This document shows, one piece after another, positions 18,002-38,737 of a stretch of 64,000 nucleotides of DNA. The position numbers and the translations under genes are program-made. The notes below the pieces were generated by a model that searched no databases, was not told where the DNA came from, and saw only the letters and a list, made by a program, of their open reading frames with translations. Numbering within the stretch: position 1 is the stretch's first letter; every line of letters begins with the position of its first letter. Source of the DNA: Alphaproteobacteria bacterium (GTDB lineage Bacteria > Pseudomonadota > Alphaproteobacteria > SP197); contig OZ245842.1 in the NCBI GenBank assembly GCA_965228895.1, forward strand, positions 2,839,964 through 2,903,963, written 5' to 3'.

Positions 18002-19867
18002 TCACGTCTCCAGGCGGTAGACCTCAATCGACGCCGACCGGCCCTTCACCTCGTGGTGGCCGACCGCATGGACCACCGTCGAACCGTCGAGGGCCCGCCA
18101 TGTGGTATCGCTGATCAGCACGATGACATCACCGCTGGCCTGATCATCGAATGACTTGCCGAGCTGCTCCAGCCGCTGGCAGGTGTTCACGGTGTCGCCG
18201 ACGATGGTGTAGTTGACCCGGTCGGGCGCACCAATGTTGCCGACGATCACCGGGCCTGTGTGCAATCCGATGCGCACGCGCACGGCCTCTTCGCCACGTG
18301 CCCGCCGCTCGGCGTTGAGCGTCGCCATAGCCTCGGCAATGGCCTTGGCCGCACGGCAAGCGCGCATGGCGTGGTCGGGTTGATGTTCTGGCGCGCCCCA
18401 GAAGGCCATGACGGCATCGCCAATGTACTTGTCGACCGTGCCGCCCTCGGCCTCGACGCAGCTCGTGATAAGGGCGAAGTGTTCGTTCAGAAAGCGCGCC
18501 GTCTCAGCAGCCGGCAGGCGTTCGGCAAACGGCGTGAAACCGATGATATCGGTGAACATCACGGTGACCTCGCGCTCTTCGGACACGAAGTCGCGGTCCT
18601 CGATCATCAGGCGATGCACCAGCTTGCGCGGCACATAGTTCTCGAACCAGCGCAAGCCCGTCAGCATCAGATTGAAGGCGCCGTTGGCTTCGTCCAACTC
18701 GCGCATACGGCTTCGCGCGAGCGGGTCAACCTTGTCGAACTCGAGCGCGCCGATGCGCTGCGCCGAAATTGCGAGGTTGTGCACGGGTCCCGCGATGCGA
18801 TGGCCGATGAAGAACGCCGCCGCGACGCCCAACGCCAGCACAATCAGGCCCGCGATGATTGCCATGTTCAACCGCTCGAACTCGTCTTCGAAATCACTGC
18901 CGCGGTAGTAGCTGCCTAACAACCACGATACGTTCCCGAACGTGTCGATACGGTGATAGACGTAAAACCACTCCTCGCCGTCTATCTCAGTCATATGCGA
19001 TAAGACGCCGGAGCCCGAGATGTCCTCCGCCGGAAAAGTAGGCTCTTCCCATATTGCCGCAAGGATAGGGTCATCGACTTCGTCGATCAGCGGCACCGGT
19101 TTTTCCGGTGACAGGCCGCGTTCAATCGCGCCGACATCATCGGCCAGCGATGGATGGGCGAGGATCATGTCTTCACCCTGAAGAATGAAGACGCGGCTTC
19201 CGAAATCCTCTTCCAGTTCCGCAGCAAGACGGGAGAGCTTCTGGATTGAAACGCCGGCGCCTAAAACGCCGATGACGTCGCCATTGACGGACACAGGCCG
19301 ACGGATGGTCTGAACCGCGATCTCCAGGCCCGGCGACCAGACGACATCCCCCCAGCCGCCGCCCCGCATGTTGTCCATATCGTCGGTCAATGCATCGATG
19401 TCAGGTCCGCCAGCGTAGTCGTCGCTGATCCAATAGGCACCGCCGCCAACACGGCCGACGCCGCGAAGGCGTCCGTTCGTGTCGACGAAGATGATACCGT
19501 CAACCTGCGGCGTCGCCGCCAGCGCACCGGTCAGGACATCCTCCATCTGTTGATCATCATTGGGATCAAGCCGGCCGGCCGTGATCAGGTCATTGATAAA
19601 GTCGAGCTGGTCCTCCGCCGGTACCAGATGTTCTTCCAGCCGTGCCTCGACCGTGTCGATCGCGAAGACAGCTTGGTCCTGCAGCAGATCAATGGTCGAT
19701 TGGATGCCGCTCCAGATACTGATGACCAACACGCTCGCGGCCGCCAACAACACCAGCGCGCCCAGGCTCAGGCCCAGCAACATCGCAATGGGAATGCGCC
19801 AGGGCTTGCGCGCGTGCTGTGCCGCTGGCCCAGCATCAAGCCGTTCTGAAGATGTCCTTACCGCCAT
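18002..19867 (-). CDS. Class III adenylate/guanylate cyclase with N-terminal TM-anchored periplasmic sensor (Cache-like) and HAMP
   Basis: Two transmembrane helices flank a ~280-aa extracytoplasmic domain. The C-terminus has the cyclase core 'VTVMFTDIIGFT...KYIGDAVMAFWGAP...RIGLHTGPVIVGNIG'. Confidence 0.8.
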   Translation of the reverse strand: MAVRTSSERLDAGPAAQHARKPWRIPIAMLLGLSLGALVLLAAASVLVISIWSGIQSTIDLLQDQAVFAIDTVEARLEEHLVPAEDQLDFINDLITAGRLDPNDDQQMEDVLTGALAATPQVDGIIFVDTNGRLRGVGRVGGGAYWISDDYAGGPDIDALTDDMDNMRGGGWGDVVWSPGLEIAVQTIRRPVSVNGDVIGVLGAGVSIQKLSRLAAELEEDFGSRVFILQGEDMILAHPSLADDVGAIERGLSPEKPVPLIDEVDDPILAAIWEEPTFPAEDISGSGVLSHMTEIDGEEWFYVYHRIDTFGNVSWLLGSYYRGSDFEDEFERLNMAIIAGLIVLALGVAAAFFIGHRIAGPVHNLAISAQRIGALEFDKVDPLARSRMRELDEANGAFNLMLTGLRWFENYVPRKLVHRLMIEDRDFVSEEREVTVMFTDIIGFTPFAERLPAAETARFLNEHFALITSCVEAEGGTVDKYIGDAVMAFWGAPEHQPDHAMRACRAAKAIAEAMATLNAERRARGEEAVRVRIGLHTGPVIVGNIGAPDRVNYTIVGDTVNTCQRLEQLGKSFDDQASGDVIVLISDTTWRALDGSTVVHAVGHHEVKGRSASIEVYRLET

Positions 19868-21694: not shown

Positions 21695-22588
21695 TCAGGC
21701 CGCCTTTTCCGCCAGCACCTTCGCCATGGTTGAGCCAAGCTCGGCCGGGCTTGGCGCCACGGCAATGCCGGCTTCCTTCAGGATCTCGACCTTTTCAGCG
21801 GCGCTTTCGCCGAATGCCGAGATGATCGCGCCAGCATGGCCCATCTTGCGGCCCTTCGGCGCGGTCAGGCCGGCGACATAAGCCACCACCGGCTTCGACA
21901 TGTTCTCCTTGGCGAACTGGGCGGCCTCGGCTTCCTGGGGACCGCCGATCTCGCCGATCATCATGACCGCGTGGGTTTCCGGATCCTGCTCGAACAGCTC
22001 CAGGATGTCGCGGAACGAGCTGCCGTTGATCGGATCGCCGCCGATGCCGACGCTGGTCGAAATACCGATGCCGAGATCCTGCATCTGCGACGCCGCTTCA
22101 TAACCCAGCGTGCCCGAGCGGCCGACAATACCGATATTGCCCTGGGCATAGATGTGGCCGGGCATGATGCCCATCATCGCCTTGCCCGGGCTAATGACGC
22201 CGGCGCAGTTGGGTCCGATCAGACGCATGCGCTTCTCGTAGCGGTAGCGACGCATATAGCGCTTCACATGCATCATGTCCTGGGCCGGGATGCCGTCGGT
22301 GATGGAGACGCAGAAGCTGATGCCGGCGTCCGCGGCCTCCATGATCGAGTCCGCGGCAAACGGCGGCGGCACCAGCACCAGACTGGCTTGCGCGCCGGTC
22401 TCACGCACCGCGTCCTTGACCGTGTTGAAGACCGGCTTGCCCAGATGGGTGGTGCCGCCTTTGCCCGGCGTCACCCCGCCGACCACGTTGGTGCCGTAGT
22501 CGATGGCTTCCTGGGCATGGAAGGTGCCGGTCTTGCCGGTGAAACCCTGCACGATGACCGGTGTCGTTTCGTTGAGAAGAATGCTCAT
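21695..22588 (-). CDS. mtkB: Malate--CoA ligase (malate thiokinase) alpha subunit; SucD paralog
   Basis: The core 'MSILLNE...GGVTPGKGGTTHLG' resembles SucD. The insertion 'QDMMHVKRYMRRYRYEKRMRLIGPNC' is absent from E. coli SucD but present in MtkB as I recall it. The gene is adjacent to sgaA. Confidence 0.65.
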   Translation of the reverse strand: MSILLNETTPVIVQGFTGKTGTFHAQEAIDYGTNVVGGVTPGKGGTTHLGKPVFNTVKDAVRETGAQASLVLVPPPFAADSIMEAADAGISFCVSITDGIPAQDMMHVKRYMRRYRYEKRMRLIGPNCAGVISPGKAMMGIMPGHIYAQGNIGIVGRSGTLGYEAASQMQDLGIGISTSVGIGGDPINGSSFRDILELFEQDPETHAVMMIGEIGGPQEAEAAQFAKENMSKPVVAYVAGLTAPKGRKMGHAGAIISAFGESAAEKVEILKEAGIAVAPSPAELGSTMAKVLAEKAA

Positions 22589-22592
22589 CGCC

Positions 22593-23771
22593 TCACCCCT
22601 TCCCCGTCGCTTGTTTCCACGCGGCGACCGCCTTGTCGGCGGCATCGGCCAGCGTGTCGGCGGTGATGATATCCAGGCCGCTGTCGTCGAGAATCTTGCG
22701 GCCCTGCTCCACGTTGGTGCCGGCCAGACGCACGACCAGCGGCACGTCGATCTTGGTCGTCGTCACCGCCTGCACAACACCCTCGGCGACCCAGTCGCAC
22801 CGGTTGATGCCGGCGAAGATATTCACAAGGATCGCCTCGACGCCGTCGTCAGACAGCACAAGGTTGAACGCCTTGGTGACGCGCTCGGGCGAGGCGCCGC
22901 CGCCGATATCCAGGAAGTTCGCGGGCTCGCCCCCGGCATGCTTGATCATGTCCATGGTCGCCATGGCAAGACCGGCGCCGTTGATGATGCAGCCGATATT
23001 GCCGTCCAAGCCGACATAGCTGAGACCGCGGTCGGCGGCATCGCGCTCGCGGATATCCTCCTGCGACTTGTCGCGCAGCTCCGAGACGTTGGGACGGCGG
23101 AACAGCGCGTTGTCGTCGAAGGTCATCTTGGCGTCGAGTGCCAAGAGGTGTCCGTCGACAGTCACGACCAACGGATTGATCTCGACCATCGTCGCGTCGA
23201 GATCGGTGAAGGCGCGGTAGCAACCCTGCAGGATCTGCGTCATCTGCGCCACCTGCGCGGTGTCGAGCCCAAGCCCAAAGGCCATCTCGCGCGCCTGGAA
23301 CGCCTCCATACCGATGGCCGGATCGACGCTTGCGCGGATAATCGAGTCGGGTTTCTCTTCCGCGATTTCTTCGATCTCCATGCCGCCGGCGGCCGAGGCC
23401 ACGACCATGATGCGTTCGGATTTGCGGTCGAGCACGAGACCCAGATAGATCTCGCGGTCGAACGGCGTCGCTTCCTCGACATAGAGCCGGTGGATCAATT
23501 TGCCGCGCGGTCCCGTCTGGATCGTCTCCAGGCGTTTGCCGAGCAACGCGTCGGCGGCGTCCCAGACTTCGTGCTGGTCGCCGCACATCAAGACGCCACC
23601 GGCTTTGCCGCGCGCGCCGCTGTGGATCTGTGCCTTGACGACCCAGCGTTCGCCGCCCAGTTCCTGCGAACGATAGGCAGCCTGTTCAGGGCTGTAGGCA
23701 AGCCCGCCTCGCGGCACGGGCACACCGAAGTCGGCCAAGAGTTCCTTGGCCTGATACTCGTGAATGTCCAT
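22593..23771 (-). CDS. mtkA: Malate--CoA ligase beta subunit; SucC paralog
   Basis: Begins '[20 protein letters not shown]' with an ATP-grasp fold. It lies 4 nt upstream of the alpha-subunit gene. The assignment to Mtk rather than Suc rests on the partner-gene signature and the sgaA linkage. Confidence 0.6.
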
Positions 23772-23823
23772 CTGTCCCCTCCCCGGACCCGCCATAAAGG
23801 CGGGCGATGTTTAACCGGGCTTT

Positions 23824-25029
23824 TTACTCGGCAGCTTGCGCTAGCACCTCGCTGCCTTCCCGGTACCACGATTGGGCGGCGGCGACACCCGATCCCAATT
23901 CTACGGCAATGCCCGCATCGCGCATCGCCATTTCAGCACCGGCGATAGCACTGATCAGCATCAACTCGGTGACACTGCCCAAGTGGCCGATGCGAAATAC
24001 CTTACCTGAAAGCTGCGCCAGGCCGGTGCCCAGCGACAGACCGTAACGGTGGTAGGCGCCGGTGATGACCGCGGTCGCATCCCCGCCTTCGGGGACACGG
24101 ATGGCGCTGACCGTGTCAGACCGCCACTGCGGTCCGGCCGAAACCAGCTCCATATCCCAGGCCTGGACGGCACGACGCACGCCTTCGGCCATGCGGTAGT
24201 GGCGGGCGAAGACGTTGTCGAGCCCTTCTTCCAGCAACAGGTCGAGCGAGGCGCGCAGACCGCGCATCAGGCCGACGGCGGGCGTATAGGGGAAGAAGCC
24301 GCTGCGATTGAGCGTCAGCATGGCGTCGAAATCGAAATAGCACCGCGGCAGTTGCGCCGACTTTGCGGCTTCCAGACCACGCTGGCTGACGGCGATCAGC
24401 GCCAGGCCTGGCGGCAGCATGAAACCTTTCTGCGAACCGCTGACCGCGCAATCGACACCCCACTCGTCCATGCGGAAATCGATACTGGCGATCGAGCTGA
24501 CGCCGTCGACGAACAGCAGGGCCGGATGACCGGCGTCGTCGAGTACGCGGCGCACGCCGGGAATGTCGCTGGTGACACCGGTCGCCGTCTCGTTGTGACA
24601 GGCGAGCACCGCCTTGATCTCGTGGCCTTTGTCGGCGCCAAGGATGTCGGCGAACTGATCGAGCGGCACGCCTTCGCCCCACGGCACGTCAGCGGTGACG
24701 ACCTCAAGCCCCAGGCGCTCACACATCTCCGCCCATAGCATGGAGAACTGGCCGAAGCGGCTGGTCAGCACCTTGTCGCCCGGCGACAGCATGTTGGTCA
24801 GCGCGGCTTCCCAGCCGCCGGTGCCGGATGCCGGAAAGATCAGGGCTTCGCCGGTCTCGGTCTTGAAGACGCGTTTCAGGTCTGCAAACAGCGGCAGCGT
24901 GAAATCGGGGAAGTCGGGCGCCCGCTGGTCCTCCATGGGAACATCCAGCGCGCGGCGCACCGCTTCGGGAAGGTTGGTCGGGCCCGGAATAAAAATCGGG
25001 TTCTGGGTCGGCATGGCCAGCACTCCCAT
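23824..25029 (-). CDS. sgaA: Serine--glyoxylate (class V) aminotransferase
   Basis: Contains 'IFIPGPTNLPE', 'LLFVDGVSSIASI' and 'VFRIGHLG' together with 'GSQKGFMLPPGL'. This is an AGXT-family PLP enzyme. Confidence 0.7.
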   Translation of the reverse strand: MGVLAMPTQNPIFIPGPTNLPEAVRRALDVPMEDQRAPDFPDFTLPLFADLKRVFKTETGEALIFPASGTGGWEAALTNMLSPGDKVLTSRFGQFSMLWAEMCERLGLEVVTADVPWGEGVPLDQFADILGADKGHEIKAVLACHNETATGVTSDIPGVRRVLDDAGHPALLFVDGVSSIASIDFRMDEWGVDCAVSGSQKGFMLPPGLALIAVSQRGLEAAKSAQLPRCYFDFDAMLTLNRSGFFPYTPAVGLMRGLRASLDLLLEEGLDNVFARHYRMAEGVRRAVQAWDMELVSAGPQWRSDTVSAIRVPEGGDATAVITGAYHRYGLSLGTGLAQLSGKVFRIGHLGSVTELMLISAIAGAEMAMRDAGIAVELGSGVAAAQSWYREGSEVLAQAAE

Positions 25030-25288: not shown

Positions 25289-25428
25289 CTAGAGCAGATC
25301 CCGTTTTGATGGAATCGCTTCGCGATGCCGTCAAGACGGGTGAATCCGCTCTATTCATCGATAGAGAGCGGATTCACGCCGTTAGGGGGAACCGTCAAAC
25401 GGTTCCCCCTAACGACGATCCGCTCTAG
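25289..25428 (+). repeat. ~140-bp structured intergenic repeat element, copy A
   Basis: This copy is about 85% identical to the element at 38598..38737. It has terminal inverted repeats (CTAGAGCAGATC...GATCCGCTCTAG) and internal hairpins, including TTAGGGGGAACCG-tcaa-ACGGTTCCCCCTAA. Confidence 0.7.
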
Positions 25429-25646
25429 CCCTTGGAATCGCTGGAGAACATGCGTTCGATCCGAACGGCAACGGCATCCAAGACGGAGAGCACCAGGAAG
25501 AAGACAAGAATGATGGGCAGGTATTTGAAATCGCTGACAAAGGTGCCCTTGATCTCGTCCTCCATCAACGGCCAGGCCTCGTACCCGCCATAGGCGAGAC
25601 CCGCGGTAACAATCGCGGCGAGGACGACGCGCAGCATCCAGGTCAT
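25425..25646 (-). CDS. Small membrane protein (74 aa), last gene of the five-gene operon
   Basis: Reads 'MTWMLRVVLAAIVTAGLAYGG...YLPIILVFFLVLSVL' with two predicted helices. Its start lies 2 nt after the TGA of the upstream gene. Confidence 0.45.
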   Translation of the reverse strand: MTWMLRVVLAAIVTAGLAYGGYEAWPLMEDEIKGTFVSDFKYLPIILVFFLVLSVLDAVAVRIERMFSSDSKG

Positions 25647-25648
25647 CG

Positions 25649-26434
25649 TCAAAAGACCTCGGCCGACGACAGGTCGACCTTGAAGACGAGAATATCGTCG
25701 CGGCGCTCGACCTCGCCTTCCAAGCTCACGCGAAGCGCAACGAGGTCGTAGTAGGCGTCCGGCAACGGTCCGCCGTCGGCATTGGCGAGCCACATGAAGT
25801 TCATGCCCTCGATCTCGCCGGTCGTGACGAACACGGGCGGCACGCCTCCCAAGAGACAGAGATCCGCGCAGGCCAGATGCGCCAGACCGTTGCCTGGGCG
25901 CATCGCGCCGGCGTAGCACTTGCCGTCGCAGATCTCGCCTTCCAGGCGCCAGTAGCCGAGCGATTCAGCGGCGGCCGGCGTGAAGTTCTGCTGGTCGGCG
26001 GTGAGCGTCGCCGCCGTCGGCGTCAGCTTCATGTTGTTGACGCCGCCGCGCACCACCAGCATGTCGAGTTCGCCGCGCCTGAGGAAGAAACCTTCGATAT
26101 CGACGATCTGGCCATCGAGCGGTTCGGCCGCGTTCATGACGCCCCACTTGCCCTGTCCGGTCAGCGGAATGGCGCGGGCTTCCTGATCACCGTCCGGCAT
26201 GACACGCAGGATCGGATAGGGCTGCAGTTCCACAATGCCGGTCAATGTCTTCAAGTTCGCCGCGCCGCCGATGAAACGGCCGTTGCCCGGGTCTGCGGTA
26301 CCGGCGCCAAGCGCAAATGCGACCACGGCGGCGATAACCAGAAGCGAGCCGGCGACAGCCGCCAGAAAAGCCATCAGGCGCGGCGGCACCTTGCGGGAAT
26401 ATCCGATGAAAAAGTCGTCATGCGAACTGGCCAT
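25649..26434 (-). CDS. Membrane-anchored periplasmic protein (hypothetical)
   Basis: 261 aa with an N-terminal anchor 'LMAFLAAVAGSLLVIAAVVAFAL'. It is co-directional and tightly spaced with the di-heme-b/Rieske gene. Confidence 0.5.
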   Translation of the reverse strand: MASSHDDFFIGYSRKVPPRLMAFLAAVAGSLLVIAAVVAFALGAGTADPGNGRFIGGAANLKTLTGIVELQPYPILRVMPDGDQEARAIPLTGQGKWGVMNAAEPLDGQIVDIEGFFLRRGELDMLVVRGGVNNMKLTPTAATLTADQQNFTPAAAESLGYWRLEGEICDGKCYAGAMRPGNGLAHLACADLCLLGGVPPVFVTTGEIEGMNFMWLANADGGPLPDAYYDLVALRVSLEGEVERRDDILVFKVDLSSAEVF

Positions 26435-26436
26435 GG

Positions 26437-27495
26437 TTAGGCCTCTCCAATCGTCACCGGCTCGATAAAGGTGCCGGGCGCCAATGGGTTGGGATCAAGC
26501 AGGATGCGCGACCCGTCCAGTTTCAAACGATAGGTCGGGATCTTCTCGGTGAACGGTGCGGGCGCGCAGCCATCGGCCGGGTTGTATTGGAAACCGTGCC
26601 AGGGACACGTGACGCAGCCGCCGATGATGCGGCCCTCGCCCAGCGGCCCGTTCTGATGCGCGCAAACATTGCCGACCGCCGAGAGTTTGCCGTCATAGCG
26701 GAACACGGCGACACGCTCGCCGTCTGTCAACGGCACGACGATCGCCTGGTTGTTGGGGATGTCGTCGACCTGGCCGGCTACCAGCCATGAACCGTCGCCC
26801 GCGCTTGTCGCAGCCCGGCGGTCGCGCCGTCTCTCCGCCAACGCGGCAGCCAGATGAAGTCCGACGACAGCGGTCACGCCGACGGCGACGATCAGCGGCA
26901 GCACCGGCCCGGTCTCCGCCTGCAACGCGCCGAACGCGATGTGCAGCACGATCGCGAGATAGGCCGCATAGACCAGCATGTGGATCGCCTTCCACACCGG
27001 CGGCGTCAGGAAACTCAGCCAGAAGTCATGACTGGTCACCGCCATGATGACGAGGATCAACAGAGCGAAGATGCCGAACGCCTCGAACGGGAATCCGAGA
27101 AGCTGATCATAGTTGGTGTTGGTGCCCAGCACCGCGACGTACTTGTCGAAGAACGGGCTGAACGAAAAGTAAATGCCGATGACGAAGCTGGCATGGATCA
27201 GCGCGACGATGCAGGTGATGACGCCGAAGTGGCGTCGATTGTAGACGAGCGGCAGGAAACGCCGATCGAGGCGCGCCAATGGACCGAGACACAAGATCAG
27301 ACTGAGCATCAGGAAGGCGCACGACCCGAACGCGCGCGCCTTGTAGATATTCCCGCTGACCGGCCGCGTCGTCGATTGATAGGCCGGCGCGATTTCCAGG
27401 AACATCCAGATGTAAACGAAGACACCAACCAACAAGACGGCGTCATAGATGATCTTGTTGCTGTTCCAGAGAACCGGCTGATAGCGCGCGCTCAT
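26437..27495 (-). CDS. Ferric-reductase/YedZ-like di-heme-b transmembrane domain fused to a C-terminal Rieske [2Fe-2S] domain
   Basis: The start is trimmed to 'MSARYQPVL', with a GGAGG ribosome-binding site. Four transmembrane histidines (ALIHASF, VTSHDFW, KAIHMLV, IVLHIAF) are present. The Rieske ligands are 'CAHQNGPL...(15)...CPWHGF'. Confidence 0.65.
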   Translation of the reverse strand: MSARYQPVLWNSNKIIYDAVLLVGVFVYIWMFLEIAPAYQSTTRPVSGNIYKARAFGSCAFLMLSLILCLGPLARLDRRFLPLVYNRRHFGVITCIVALIHASFVIGIYFSFSPFFDKYVAVLGTNTNYDQLLGFPFEAFGIFALLILVIMAVTSHDFWLSFLTPPVWKAIHMLVYAAYLAIVLHIAFGALQAETGPVLPLIVAVGVTAVVGLHLAAALAERRRDRRAATSAGDGSWLVAGQVDDIPNNQAIVVPLTDGERVAVFRYDGKLSAVGNVCAHQNGPLGEGRIIGGCVTCPWHGFQYNPADGCAPAPFTEKIPTYRLKLDGSRILLDPNPLAPGTFIEPVTIGEA

Positions 27496-27653
27496 GGTGT
27501 GGATGCCTCCGCAGACGGCGCTTCGATTCGTTCGGCGCGGGTCTCCAGCGGCCCTTGCTGGCGGACCACCATGGCAACAAAAATGACAAGCGGCAGCAGA
27601 ACCGCAAGCGTCATCCAGATACGGGCATGGGTTCTTCGATGACCACGCTTCAT
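27492..27653 (-). CDS. Small ORF (~52 aa, single TM), translationally coupled
   Basis: Reads 'MKRGHRRTHARIWMTLAVLLPLVIFVAMVV...'. Its ATG overlaps the TGA of the upstream gene (ATGA), and its own TGA overlaps the ATG of the Rieske gene. It is not in the ORF track because it is shorter than 60 aa. Confidence 0.3.
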   Translation of the reverse strand: MKRGHRRTHARIWMTLAVLLPLVIFVAMVVRQQGPLETRAERIEAPSAEASTP

Positions 27654-27865
27654 GACGGCCTCGCGCGTTCAAGCGCCATCCAGCGCAACAAAACGAGCGG
27701 CCACAAGACGATGCAGCCGGGTATCAACAGCGCGCGAAACACATACGAGCCGCGCGCACCCGGTTCGACACGATCAACGCCAATAATCAGAAATAGGGCC
27801 GCAACCCCAAGACCGACCCAGAAATAGATCTGGACGATCTGGATGATAAGGCTCGCCGTTTCCAC
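27650..27865 (-). CDS. Small membrane protein (71 aa), first gene of the operon
   Basis: Reads 'METASLIIQIVQIYFWVGLGVAALFLIIGV...LIPGCIVLWPLVLL', two predicted helices. Confidence 0.4.
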   Translation of the reverse strand: METASLIIQIVQIYFWVGLGVAALFLIIGVDRVEPGARGSYVFRALLIPGCIVLWPLVLLRWMALERARPS

Positions 27866-27961: not shown

Positions 27962-28807
27962 CTAGAGGCCGTAGCGGTTCCAGGTCAGGCGGTGTTCGGT
28001 CTCGTCGGCGAGCGCTTCGGCGAAACCTTCGCCCACTTTGCTCGATCCCAGCCCCAGACGGGCGAGCAGCGGTTTGGAAACGTGCACCGCCTTGAACTTC
28101 ACTTTGTCGCCGAACTTCTCACGCATGATGGTGCGCACATCGCCCATGCCGTCGACGAGACCAAGATCCAGGCTGCGTTGGCCGCTCCAGAATGCGCCGC
28201 TGAAGCGTTCCTCCTCGTCGCCCTTCAAGCGGCCGCCACGCCGGTTGCGCACGTGCTGCTTAAAGACCTCGTGCAATTCATCCTGCAGTTCTTTCAGGCG
28301 CACGACGTCGTCGGGGTCTTCCGGGCGAAACGGATCGAGCATGCTCTTGCGCGTGCCCGCCGTGTGCATTCGGCGCTCGACACCGAGCTTGGCCATGGCA
28401 TCGACAAAACCGAAACCGGCCGAGATGACGCCGATCGAGCCGATGATCGAACTGGGTTGCGCGTAGATCTCATCACCCGCGCAGGCGAGCCAATAGCCGC
28501 CGGACGCCGCGACGTCCTCGCAGAAGACATAGACCGGCAGTTTCTTTTCGTCCGCCAACGCGCGGATACGGTCGTGCACCAGCGCCGATTGCGTCGGCGA
28601 GCCGCCTGGCGAATTGATCACCACCGCGACAGCCTTGGCCCGCGACACGCCGAACGCCTGCTCGATCGCGCTGGCATGGCTTTCGATGGAAATGCCCTTG
28701 CCCATACGCCCGCGCGGCGCGATGACGCCGTCCAATCGCAGCACGGCGATCTGAGGACGCCGGCGCAGGAACTTGGGCAGCGGGATAAGGGAAAAGAGTT
28801 TTTTCAT
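27962..28807 (-). CDS. sppA: Signal peptide peptidase SppA (S49 family, 36K type)
   Basis: Contains 'VVINSPGGSPTQS' and 'VAASGGYWLACAGDEI' together with the Ser/Lys dyad region. 281 aa. Confidence 0.8.
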   Translation of the reverse strand: MKKLFSLIPLPKFLRRRPQIAVLRLDGVIAPRGRMGKGISIESHASAIEQAFGVSRAKAVAVVINSPGGSPTQSALVHDRIRALADEKKLPVYVFCEDVAASGGYWLACAGDEIYAQPSSIIGSIGVISAGFGFVDAMAKLGVERRMHTAGTRKSMLDPFRPEDPDDVVRLKELQDELHEVFKQHVRNRRGGRLKGDEEERFSGAFWSGQRSLDLGLVDGMGDVRTIMREKFGDKVKFKAVHVSKPLLARLGLGSSKVGEGFAEALADETEHRLTWNRYGL

Positions 28808-38597: not shown

Positions 38598-38737
38598 TTA
38601 GAGCAGATCCTGTTTTGATGAAATCGCTTCGCGATGCCAGCAAAGCAGGTGAATCTGCTCTACTCATAGATAGAGAGCGGATTCACATGGTTAGGTGGAA
38701 CCGCCAAACGGTTCCACCTAACCATGATCCGCTCTAG
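38598..38737 (+). repeat. ~140-bp structured intergenic repeat element, copy B
   Basis: Same orientation and architecture as copy A. Compensatory changes preserve each hairpin: CCTGT...ACAGG here versus CCCGT...ACGGG in A, and TTAGGTGGAACCG...CGGTTCCACCTAA here versus GGGGG/CCCCC in A. Confidence 0.7.

Follow-up and report, generated by a model that had tools for sequence, protein, structure and literature searches.

What could be achieved by a set of coupled genes whose central product joins a membrane-embedded ferric reductase domain (FRD) to a Rieske [2Fe-2S] domain? This question is raised by a window of 64,000 nucleotides (nt), the whole stretch of DNA that was analysed, from an alphaproteobacterial assembly (GCA_965228895.1, contig OZ245842.1, positions 2,839,964 to 2,903,963), in which five minus-strand open reading frames (ORFs), termed g1 to g5 here, lie head to tail from 27865 to 25425 and encode proteins of 71, 53, 352, 261 and 73 amino acids (aa). 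The original prediction, made from the letters alone, had described them as a translationally coupled membrane redox operon outside any characterised system. Here, we report that the cluster is a real membrane operon, that its five genes are conserved across hundreds of Alphaproteobacteria, and that by analogy the operon most likely represents an electron exporter of the MsrPQ/NOX/STEAP kind in which both the input domain and the periplasmic acceptor are new. The five genes are:

27650..27865, minus strand: g1, 71 aa, GTG start, a two-helix membrane protein
27492..27653, minus strand: g2, 53 aa, a single-helix peptide with ATGA overlaps at both ends
26437..27495, minus strand: g3, 352 aa, an FRD membrane part with a C-terminal Rieske [2Fe-2S] domain
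25649..26434, minus strand: g4, 261 aa, a membrane-anchored protein, 2-nt spacer after g3
25425..25646, minus strand: g5, 73 aa, a two-helix membrane protein, 2-nt spacer after g4

The predicted coupling and coordinates are borne out by the sequence: the ATG of g2 overlaps the stop codon of g1 as ATGA, the g2/g3 junction is likewise an ATGA overlap, and 2-nt spacers separate the remaining genes, the length of g2 being corrected from 52 to 53 aa. A GGAGG- or GAGG-like Shine-Dalgarno sequence can be read 6-11 nt 5' of each of the five starts, and the alignment of homologues favours a g3 start at the ATG of 27495 over one at the upstream TTG of a longer ORF.

The gene order was followed by tblastn in 80 related genome loci, most of them labelled alphaproteobacterial or unresolved Pseudomonadota, with g1 scored in the 78 that are not cut at a contig end. 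g4 lies directly after g3 in all 80, g1 stands ahead of g3 in all 78, a g2 equivalent, either separate or fused to g1, was found in nearly all, and the g2 stop overlaps the g3 ATG in most, so that the predicted five-gene synteny recurs together with its ATGA coupling. Because the ORFs are recovered across related genome loci, they are more than chance reading frames. A g1-like ORF also precedes the cluster in each of six extra DNA contexts (L081, L082, L084, L085, L087 and L088), including the 45% GC locus L084, and a weaker g2-like match occurs in five of them, with none in L085. On a Rhizobium leguminosarum plasmid, the Prokaryotic Genome Annotation Pipeline (PGAP) calls all five genes, four as hypothetical and one as 'Rieske 2Fe-2S domain-containing protein'. 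At a larger scale, at least 8000 clusters at 90% identity share the Ferric_reduct plus Rieske architecture of g3, at least 589 species genomes among those scanned encode a g3 relative, and the carriers include Roseobacter-group bacteria, Roseibium and rhizobia.

Natural fusions were found as well. g1 and g2 form one in-frame ORF in 43 of the 78 uncut loci, with the ATGA coupling to g3 retained, and a g4 profile search over 1.84 billion representatives gave 1978 matches, two of which are g3+g4 fusions (P0329, 583 aa; P0396, 603 aa). These fusions support a physical complex, and together with the translational coupling they suggest that the five products may assemble with a fixed stoichiometry.

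The g3 protein provides the clearest clue to what such a complex could do, and its two parts are delimited as follows:

26809..27462, minus strand: g3 membrane domain, aa 12-229, six helices, drawn from invariant columns, AlphaFold 2 (AF2) helices and hydropathy
26530..26790, minus strand: g3 Rieske domain, aa 236-322, with ligands C278, H280, C297 and H300

Pfam profiles recognise both, Ferric_reduct (PF01794) at residues 57-182 (E 5.6e-14; 52.7 bits, cut-off 28) and Rieske (PF00355) at residues 236-322 (E 3.9e-17; 62.4 bits, cut-off 20.3), and the AF2 model of g3, with a predicted local distance difference test score (pLDDT) of 72, displays six long helices and then a beta domain. In an alignment of 24 homologues (58-76% identity), H89, H101, H172 and H185 are invariant; the first two lie on helix 3 and the last two on helix 5, as putative heme ligands. 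The profile match, the six helices and the histidine pairs on helices 3 and 5 place g3 in the FRD superfamily, and the di-heme-type FRD with four transmembrane histidines and a Rieske domain that had been proposed stands on these matches and conserved ligands. With its four heme-type histidines, g3 could bind two b hemes, of which, by analogy with NOX2, the inner one would be held by H89/H172 and the outer one by H101/H185 (PMC3591440). Further invariant elements are NRRH (86-89), GFPFE (134-138), TSHDFW (154-159), H156 and H214. In Foldseek, the nearest solved folds of the membrane part are STEAP1/2/4 and the NOX5 membrane domain, the sequence identity to the STEAP folds being merely 15-17%.

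Within the Rieske domain of the same homologues, C278, H280 and C297 are invariant and H300 is kept in at least 90%. The motif reads C278-A-H280 ... C297-P-W-H300 with 16 residues between, one more than first counted, and its boxes, CAHQNG and CPWHGF, lack the extra cysteine pair of the high-potential bc1/b6f Rieske proteins. The potential class of a Rieske protein follows established sequence rules, in which the disulfide cysteines mark the high-potential type. Because the g3 boxes are without these bc1-type cysteines, its cluster is probably of low potential, and the domain would belong to the ferredoxin/NirD type. Foldseek places it nearest to dioxygenase Rieske ferredoxins and NirD, and its best sequence matches in the PDB are also dioxygenase Rieske ferredoxins (2qpz, E 1.2e-10).

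If g3 is the wire, g4 is the candidate for its far end. This protein consists of a conserved cytoplasmic FFxGY N-terminus, one transmembrane helix (approximately residues 18-45) and two barrels resembling oligonucleotide/oligosaccharide-binding (OB) folds, which are predicted to be periplasmic; the AF2 model (pLDDT 83.6) likewise shows an anchor helix and two OB-like barrels. Profile searches found no Pfam, NCBIfam or PDB sequence relative of g4 above noise, and the fold search returned generic OB folds only, with SSB and PriB scoring equally to CusF/SilF-like binders. The most distinctive part of g4 is a loop of approximately 30 residues between two strands of the second barrel:

25838..25939, minus strand: g4 signature loop, aa 166-199, G-E-x2-D-x-K-C173-x2-G-x-M178-x-P-G-x4-H186-x2-C189-A-x2-C193-x3-G-x-P-P

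Among 143 diverse representatives, C173, M178, P180, G166 and G176 are conserved in 100%, H186, C189, C193, D170 and K172 in 98-99%, E167 in 94% and C169 in only 36%. The pLDDT of the loop is low (47-57), as expected for a cofactor-dependent loop. With three cysteines, one histidine and one methionine, it looks like a candidate metal or redox site, and it is this combination that argues against two structural disulfides. The opposite view, that g4 has a folding or structural role, its cysteines being tied up in ordinary disulfides or in a structural Zn site, and that the chemistry takes place elsewhere, for example in membrane lipid or isoprenoid modification, could draw on the fact that periplasmic cysteines are usually oxidised by DsbA, and on the lipid-related genes beside the cluster in some loci (squalene/phytoene synthase, patatin, OpgC acyltransferase and esterase), a polyprenyl synthase lying 2 kb upstream of it in the window. 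However, each of these lipid-related neighbours occurs in merely 1-5 loci, and a single loop that combines three cysteines, not four, with an invariant His, Met, Asp and Lys would be atypical for structural disulfides; we consider a purely structural g4 quite improbable.

Do the two ends face opposite sides of the membrane? By hydropathy, the number of transmembrane segments from g1 through g5 is 2, 1, 6, 1 and 2. In g3, the segments R75-H89 and ERRRDRR after helix 6 are basic, while the loops 110-136 and 193-197 are acidic or neutral, and because of these loop charges both g3 termini and the Rieske domain are predicted to be cytoplasmic, as in NOX. In the natural g3+g4 fusions, exactly one helix lies between the Rieske and the OB domains, which places the OB domains on the opposite, periplasmic side of the membrane as judged from the fused sequences. 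No twin-arginine motif is present in the g4 sequence. Export of the Rieske domain itself by a dual Sec and twin-arginine translocation (Tat) route was also considered and rejected, as no hydrophobic helix follows ERRRDRR in g3; in a paper on such Sec-Tat proteins, MsrQ is mentioned in passing and the g3 family is not listed (PMC5449189).

The small subunits g1, g2 and g5 gave nothing above noise in Pfam, NCBIfam and PDB profile searches, and they are recognised through recurrence and short motifs. g1, recovered at 37-90% identity in all uncut loci, carries the conserved motif FL..GIDRIDEDARGAY.FRPLL.PG.LLIWPLVLWRW, and its database homologues are all 'hypothetical' and without a Pfam domain. 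In a collection of 15 billion proteins, g3 and g4 of this genome are present at 100% identity, whereas g1 has no exact copy and a best match of 90%, for which reason g1 was probably left uncalled in the source assembly; in L085 and L087, too, g1 or g2 was missed or miscalled by gene callers. g2 has the N-terminal motif (R/K)xHRxxHxxIW and is matched by tblastn in 50 of the 80 loci, being elsewhere the C-terminal third of the g1+g2 fusion ORF; PGAP calls it as a 54-aa hypothetical protein on the Rhizobium plasmid. The sequence of g5 is poorly conserved, with a direct tblastn match in only nine of the 80 loci, and an iterated profile restricted to ORFs following g4 recovered a counterpart in 78, of which 56 have the recurrent (K/R)GT motif between the helices; the Rhizobium copy is annotated as a 69-aa hypothetical protein.

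Based on these findings, we propose that the five products form a complex in the membrane by which electrons are carried one at a time from the cytoplasm to the periplasmic side, a scheme to which we give an even chance of being correct. First, the cytoplasmic C-terminal Rieske domain of g3 could take electrons from cytoplasmic flavoenzymes. These electrons would then pass through the six-helix FRD via the inner heme b (H89/H172) and the outer heme b (H101/H185), and would finally reach g4, where the invariant Cys3-His-Met loop could act as acceptor or catalytic site, most likely binding and reducing a thiophilic metal ion (Cu or Fe), or else working as a cysteine-based reductase. g1/g2, with three helices, and g5, with two, would be small subunits with a role in structure or assembly, much as NOX2 has p22phox.

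Where could the electrons come from? Clustering of all ORFs of the 80 loci found two genes, A and B, that recur beside the cluster:

L002:8157-9767 and L003:1841-3451, strand varying by locus: copies of gene A, which occurs in 32 of the 80 loci
L003:3481-5457, L023:8099-10072, L085:7858-9840 and L088:2812-4776: copies of gene B

Gene A (approximately 536 aa) consists of an N-terminal Rieske domain and a glutamate-synthase flavin mononucleotide (FMN) domain, carries a GltS-like C-x5-C-x4-C cluster motif (GCLGMRACHTNNCPVGIATQ), and shows 74-81% identity to the reference copy from L002 wherever it occurs. Gene B (approximately 660 aa), found in 31 of the 80 loci and additionally in L085 and L088, joins an N-terminal Rieske domain to a pyruvate-oxidase/PoxB-like thiamine pyrophosphate (TPP) enzyme, shares 73-89% identity with the reference copy from L003, and is sometimes translationally coupled to g4. 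The two occur together in 24 loci, and their order and orientation vary, yet both stay attached to the core. A signature, C-x-H-Q-x-G-P-L-G-E-G, is common to the Rieske domains of g3 and of the PoxB-like protein, and single contexts place a Rieske+FMN_red fusion, a plain FMN_red or a nitroreductase beside the cluster. Judged by their domains and positions, these Rieske-tagged cytoplasmic flavoenzymes are likely electron donors. A more detailed scheme, which we put forward only tentatively, is an envelope reductase with 'Rieske-to-Rieske' wiring, in which the Rieske-tagged flavoenzymes (PoxB-like 2-oxoacid oxidase, GltS-like FMN/[3Fe-4S] enzyme and FMN reductase) would dock on the g3 Rieske domain, and the Cys3-His-Met site of g4 would reduce a metal ion, such as Cu(II) or Fe(III), or a thiol substrate.

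The same neighbours open the main rival to electron export, namely that the FRD is a quinone-linked anchor, a dock that joins the Rieske-tagged PoxB-like and GltS-like dehydrogenases to the respiratory chain, either feeding or drawing electrons, with g4 as an accessory or assembly factor. Gene B scores best against the pyruvate oxidase and ubiquinone-dependent pyruvate dehydrogenase models (388 bits against the pyruvate oxidase model, cut-off 742), PoxB reduces membrane ubiquinone, and many respiratory dehydrogenases have a di-heme cytochrome b anchor. In addition, MsrQ, a related FRD protein, reportedly uses electrons of the respiratory chain, according to work cited in PMC5449189. However, a quinone anchor would leave unexplained why g4, with its invariant Cys/His/Met, is found with g3 at each locus and in some cases fused to it; no quinone-site motif was identified; and half of the loci, this window included, are without the dehydrogenases. 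Therefore, we regard the quinone anchor as unlikely, albeit worth keeping in view.

Gene A could also be taken as a sign that electrons run inward, from a periplasmic donor to g4, over the hemes to the cytoplasmic Rieske domain and on to reductive enzymes such as the glutamate-synthase-like FMN protein, which has the FMN domain and the cluster motif. The FMN/cluster unit acts reductively in true glutamate synthases, and FRD electron wires are reversible in principle. Nevertheless, import would run against the inside-negative membrane potential, and a low-potential Rieske domain together with co-located flavoenzymes oxidising reduced nicotinamide adenine dinucleotide (phosphate) (NAD(P)H) or 2-oxoacids fits a donor role better. 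All characterised FRD systems (NOX, FRE/FRO, STEAP and MsrQ), moreover, export electrons (PMC3591440), and inward transfer appears to us improbable.

The regulatory surroundings bear on a further possibility, a NOX-like oxygen reductase in which the outer heme would make periplasmic superoxide or peroxide for signalling or a stress response, and g4 would modulate or detoxify the product. Extracytoplasmic function (ECF) sigma/anti-sigma pairs adjoin the cluster in L087 and on the Rhizobium plasmid, the membrane part of g3 is similar in fold to NOX5, and bacterial NOX enzymes exist (PMC5676040). However, the sigma-factor adjacency is sporadic, with 2-4 loci in all, g3 has no flavin adenine dinucleotide (FAD)/NADPH dehydrogenase domain, and the invariant Cys3-His-Met site of g4 is not accounted for. 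This oxygen-reducing role seems to us the least probable explanation, and it, inward transfer and a structural g4 are each less likely than outward transfer.

The individual sigma-factor neighbours, directly beside the cluster in two lineages, are an ECF sigma with a ChrR-type (Cupin_7) anti-sigma factor at L087:4185-5449 and an ECF sigma with an NrsF/DUF1109 anti-sigma factor at L081:11915-14385; on the Rhizobium plasmid, a chlorite-dismutase-family gene accompanies the NrsF/DUF1109 pair. Both types of pair are linked to oxidative or metal stress, and the cluster may be tied to such stress by these neighbours, sporadic as they are. Binding sites for FNR/FixK, Irr (iron control element, ICE), RirA (iron-responsive operator, IRO), Fur, CueR-like regulators and OxyR were scanned for in 76 upstream sequences, and the FNR-like boxes (10 observed vs 3.75 expected) and IRO boxes (9 vs 3.65) were too weak to use. 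No riboswitch or small RNA (sRNA) was found upstream in the window, and a scan of 11 related loci gave just one, unrelated sRNA, namely the alphaproteobacterial BjrC1505 at L025:5399-5538 (86 bits, above the gathering score), approximately 100 nt upstream of g1.

Several observations weigh against the export scheme proposed here. None of the putative donor enzymes, the products of genes A and B included, is encoded in the 64-kb window, and approximately half of the 80 loci are without a recognisable redox neighbour. In approximately eight loci, the translationally coupled neighbour is a short-chain dehydrogenase, an enzyme type incapable of one-electron chemistry, which hints at a small-molecule substrate. 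No convincing metal- or stress-responsive regulatory motif or riboswitch was found upstream. Finally, we know of no exact precedent for electron transfer from heme to a Cys/metal site on a separate OB protein.

How far does the unit extend in the window? The upstream flank holds an S49 peptidase and a methyltransferase, and the downstream flank a class-V aminotransferase followed by a succinyl-CoA-ligase-like pair. Because these flanking genes are unrelated to the cluster, the five genes are treated as a self-contained unit, and its end is probably marked by the following element:

25340..25416, minus strand: two strong hairpins directly 3' of the g5 stop, RNA fold -55.9 kcal/mol, z = -9.2 vs shuffles

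A T-run is not present at these hairpins, which means that they are not a canonical intrinsic terminator; approximately 395 nt separate the end of g5 from the start of the next gene. The scan for sigma-70 promoters gave zero matches, and the terminator-like matches in the scan fall within coding sequence. At 25382-25412 of the window, after g5, lies a 31-nt perfect palindrome (TTAGGGGGAACCGTCAAACGGTTCCCCCTAA), a second copy of which at 38691-38721 differs by three changes, two of them compensatory, so that it is again a perfect palindrome; no window shuffle yields a match, and the sequence may be an intergenic element resembling repetitive extragenic palindromes.

Among the flanking genes, the S49 (SppA-like) peptidase occupies 27962-28807 of the window on the same strand, with a 96-nt gap upstream of the cluster; an S49 (SppA-like) peptidase also stands upstream, on the same strand, in a distant locus (L085:534-2396, approximately 3.4 kb from the cluster), and this recurrence is probably a coincidence. 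The minus-strand genes at 21695-25029 encode the class-V aminotransferase and then an ATP-grasp/CoA-ligase beta-alpha pair that could be of the succinyl-CoA synthetase or malate-thiokinase type, an arrangement reminiscent of serine-cycle or glyoxylate-assimilation genes. Farther downstream (18002-19867, minus strand), a 621-aa membrane sensor combines dCache_1 with an adenylate/guanylate cyclase catalytic domain.

Is the system already known under another name? g3 scores 28 bits against the NCBIfam equivalog for MsrQ (YedZ; NF003831, cut-off 130), 30 bits against MamZ (cut-off 650) and far below every cut-off of the oxygenase and ferredoxin equivalogs in NCBIfam, and neither the operon nor the conserved surroundings of the cluster at the 80 loci include an MsrP molybdopterin partner. 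NOX, FRE and FRO were rejected because g3 shows only Ferric_reduct and Rieske-type families, without the C-terminal FAD- and NAD(P)H-binding domains; STEAP, because helix 1 of g3 starts at residue 12 with no N-terminal domain before it, and because there are four heme-type histidines; and a bc1-like Rieske/cytochrome b complex, on topology, on the Rieske boxes and for want of a cytochrome b (PF00033-type) profile match. As a CusF/SilF metallochaperone, g4 fails on the single OB barrel, the His/Met/Met(/Trp) Cu(I) site and family membership. The original prediction that g3 matches no characterised family thus holds, with the caveat that the domain fusion was already catalogued in 2013, when Zhang et al. 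drew FRD with Rieske/FMN modules as the bacterial architecture 'M4' in a figure-legend schematic, and no operon, partner proteins, topology or function were discussed there (PMC3591440). In our literature searches, this listing was the only published trace, with nothing on the operon, g4 or the Rieske-tagged enzymes; the operon is new to the literature searched.

If the export scheme is true, this would be the first FRD system with an iron-sulfur instead of a flavin input, equipped with its own dedicated periplasmic acceptor, and it would provide the first function for the g4 family of approximately 2000 clusters. To our knowledge, FRD proteins (NOX, FRE, STEAP and MsrQ) are the main known route for electrons across the membrane to an outside acceptor, and those characterised so far all receive their electrons from a flavin module or from quinol. 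The operon would also be a first functional handle on three or four protein families annotated just as 'hypothetical', and it draws attention to the unexplained, highly conserved Rieske-tagged TPP and FMN enzymes. Should the g4 site reduce copper or iron, there would be a bearing on metal acquisition and cuproenzyme assembly in marine and symbiotic bacteria.

Compared with known systems, the operon recalls bc1/b6f complexes, in which a di-heme cytochrome b is combined with a Rieske [2Fe-2S] protein. However, their Rieske domain is periplasmic and that of g3 is predicted to be cytoplasmic, the high-potential boxes C-T-H-L-G-C / C-P-C-H-G-S are replaced by CAHQNG / CPWHGF, and cytochrome c1/f is absent here. 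CusF/SilF, the SilB C-terminal domain and NlpE/CutF resemble g4 only in their generic fold, with zero sequence similarity and no counterpart to its inserted Cys3-His-Met loop. STEAP proteins, the nearest solved fold of the g3 membrane part, act at the outer face on Fe(III) and Cu(II), which they reduce with one heme, an intramembrane FAD and an N-terminal NADPH domain; g3, by contrast, combines four heme-type histidines with a Rieske domain at the C-terminus.

The likeness to NOX/FRE/FRO with p22phox goes further, as it covers the six-helix FRD, the four histidines that helices 3 and 5 offer to two stacked hemes, an input module at the cytoplasmic C-terminus, a small membrane partner and, as proposed here, outward electron transfer. 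In g3, however, the FAD_binding_8 plus NAD_binding_6 module of NOX is replaced by the Rieske [2Fe-2S] domain, and the acceptor is presumably a protein site instead of O2 or free Fe(III). On helix 5, the histidines are 13 apart in NOX2 as in g3 (H172-H185), whereas on helix 3 the spacing is 12 in g3 (H89-H101) and 14 in NOX2 (H101-H115) (PMC3591440). In its overall plan, the operon resembles MsrPQ (YedYZ), wherein a bacterial FRD heme b protein hands electrons to a periplasmic partner encoded next to it and thereby serves the cell envelope. Although resembling MsrPQ in this way, the complex would differ at both ends: MsrP is a Tat-exported molybdoenzyme, whereas g4 is a Sec-type anchored OB-fold protein without a known domain, and g3 possesses its own cytoplasmic Rieske input, accompanied by three extra small membrane subunits.

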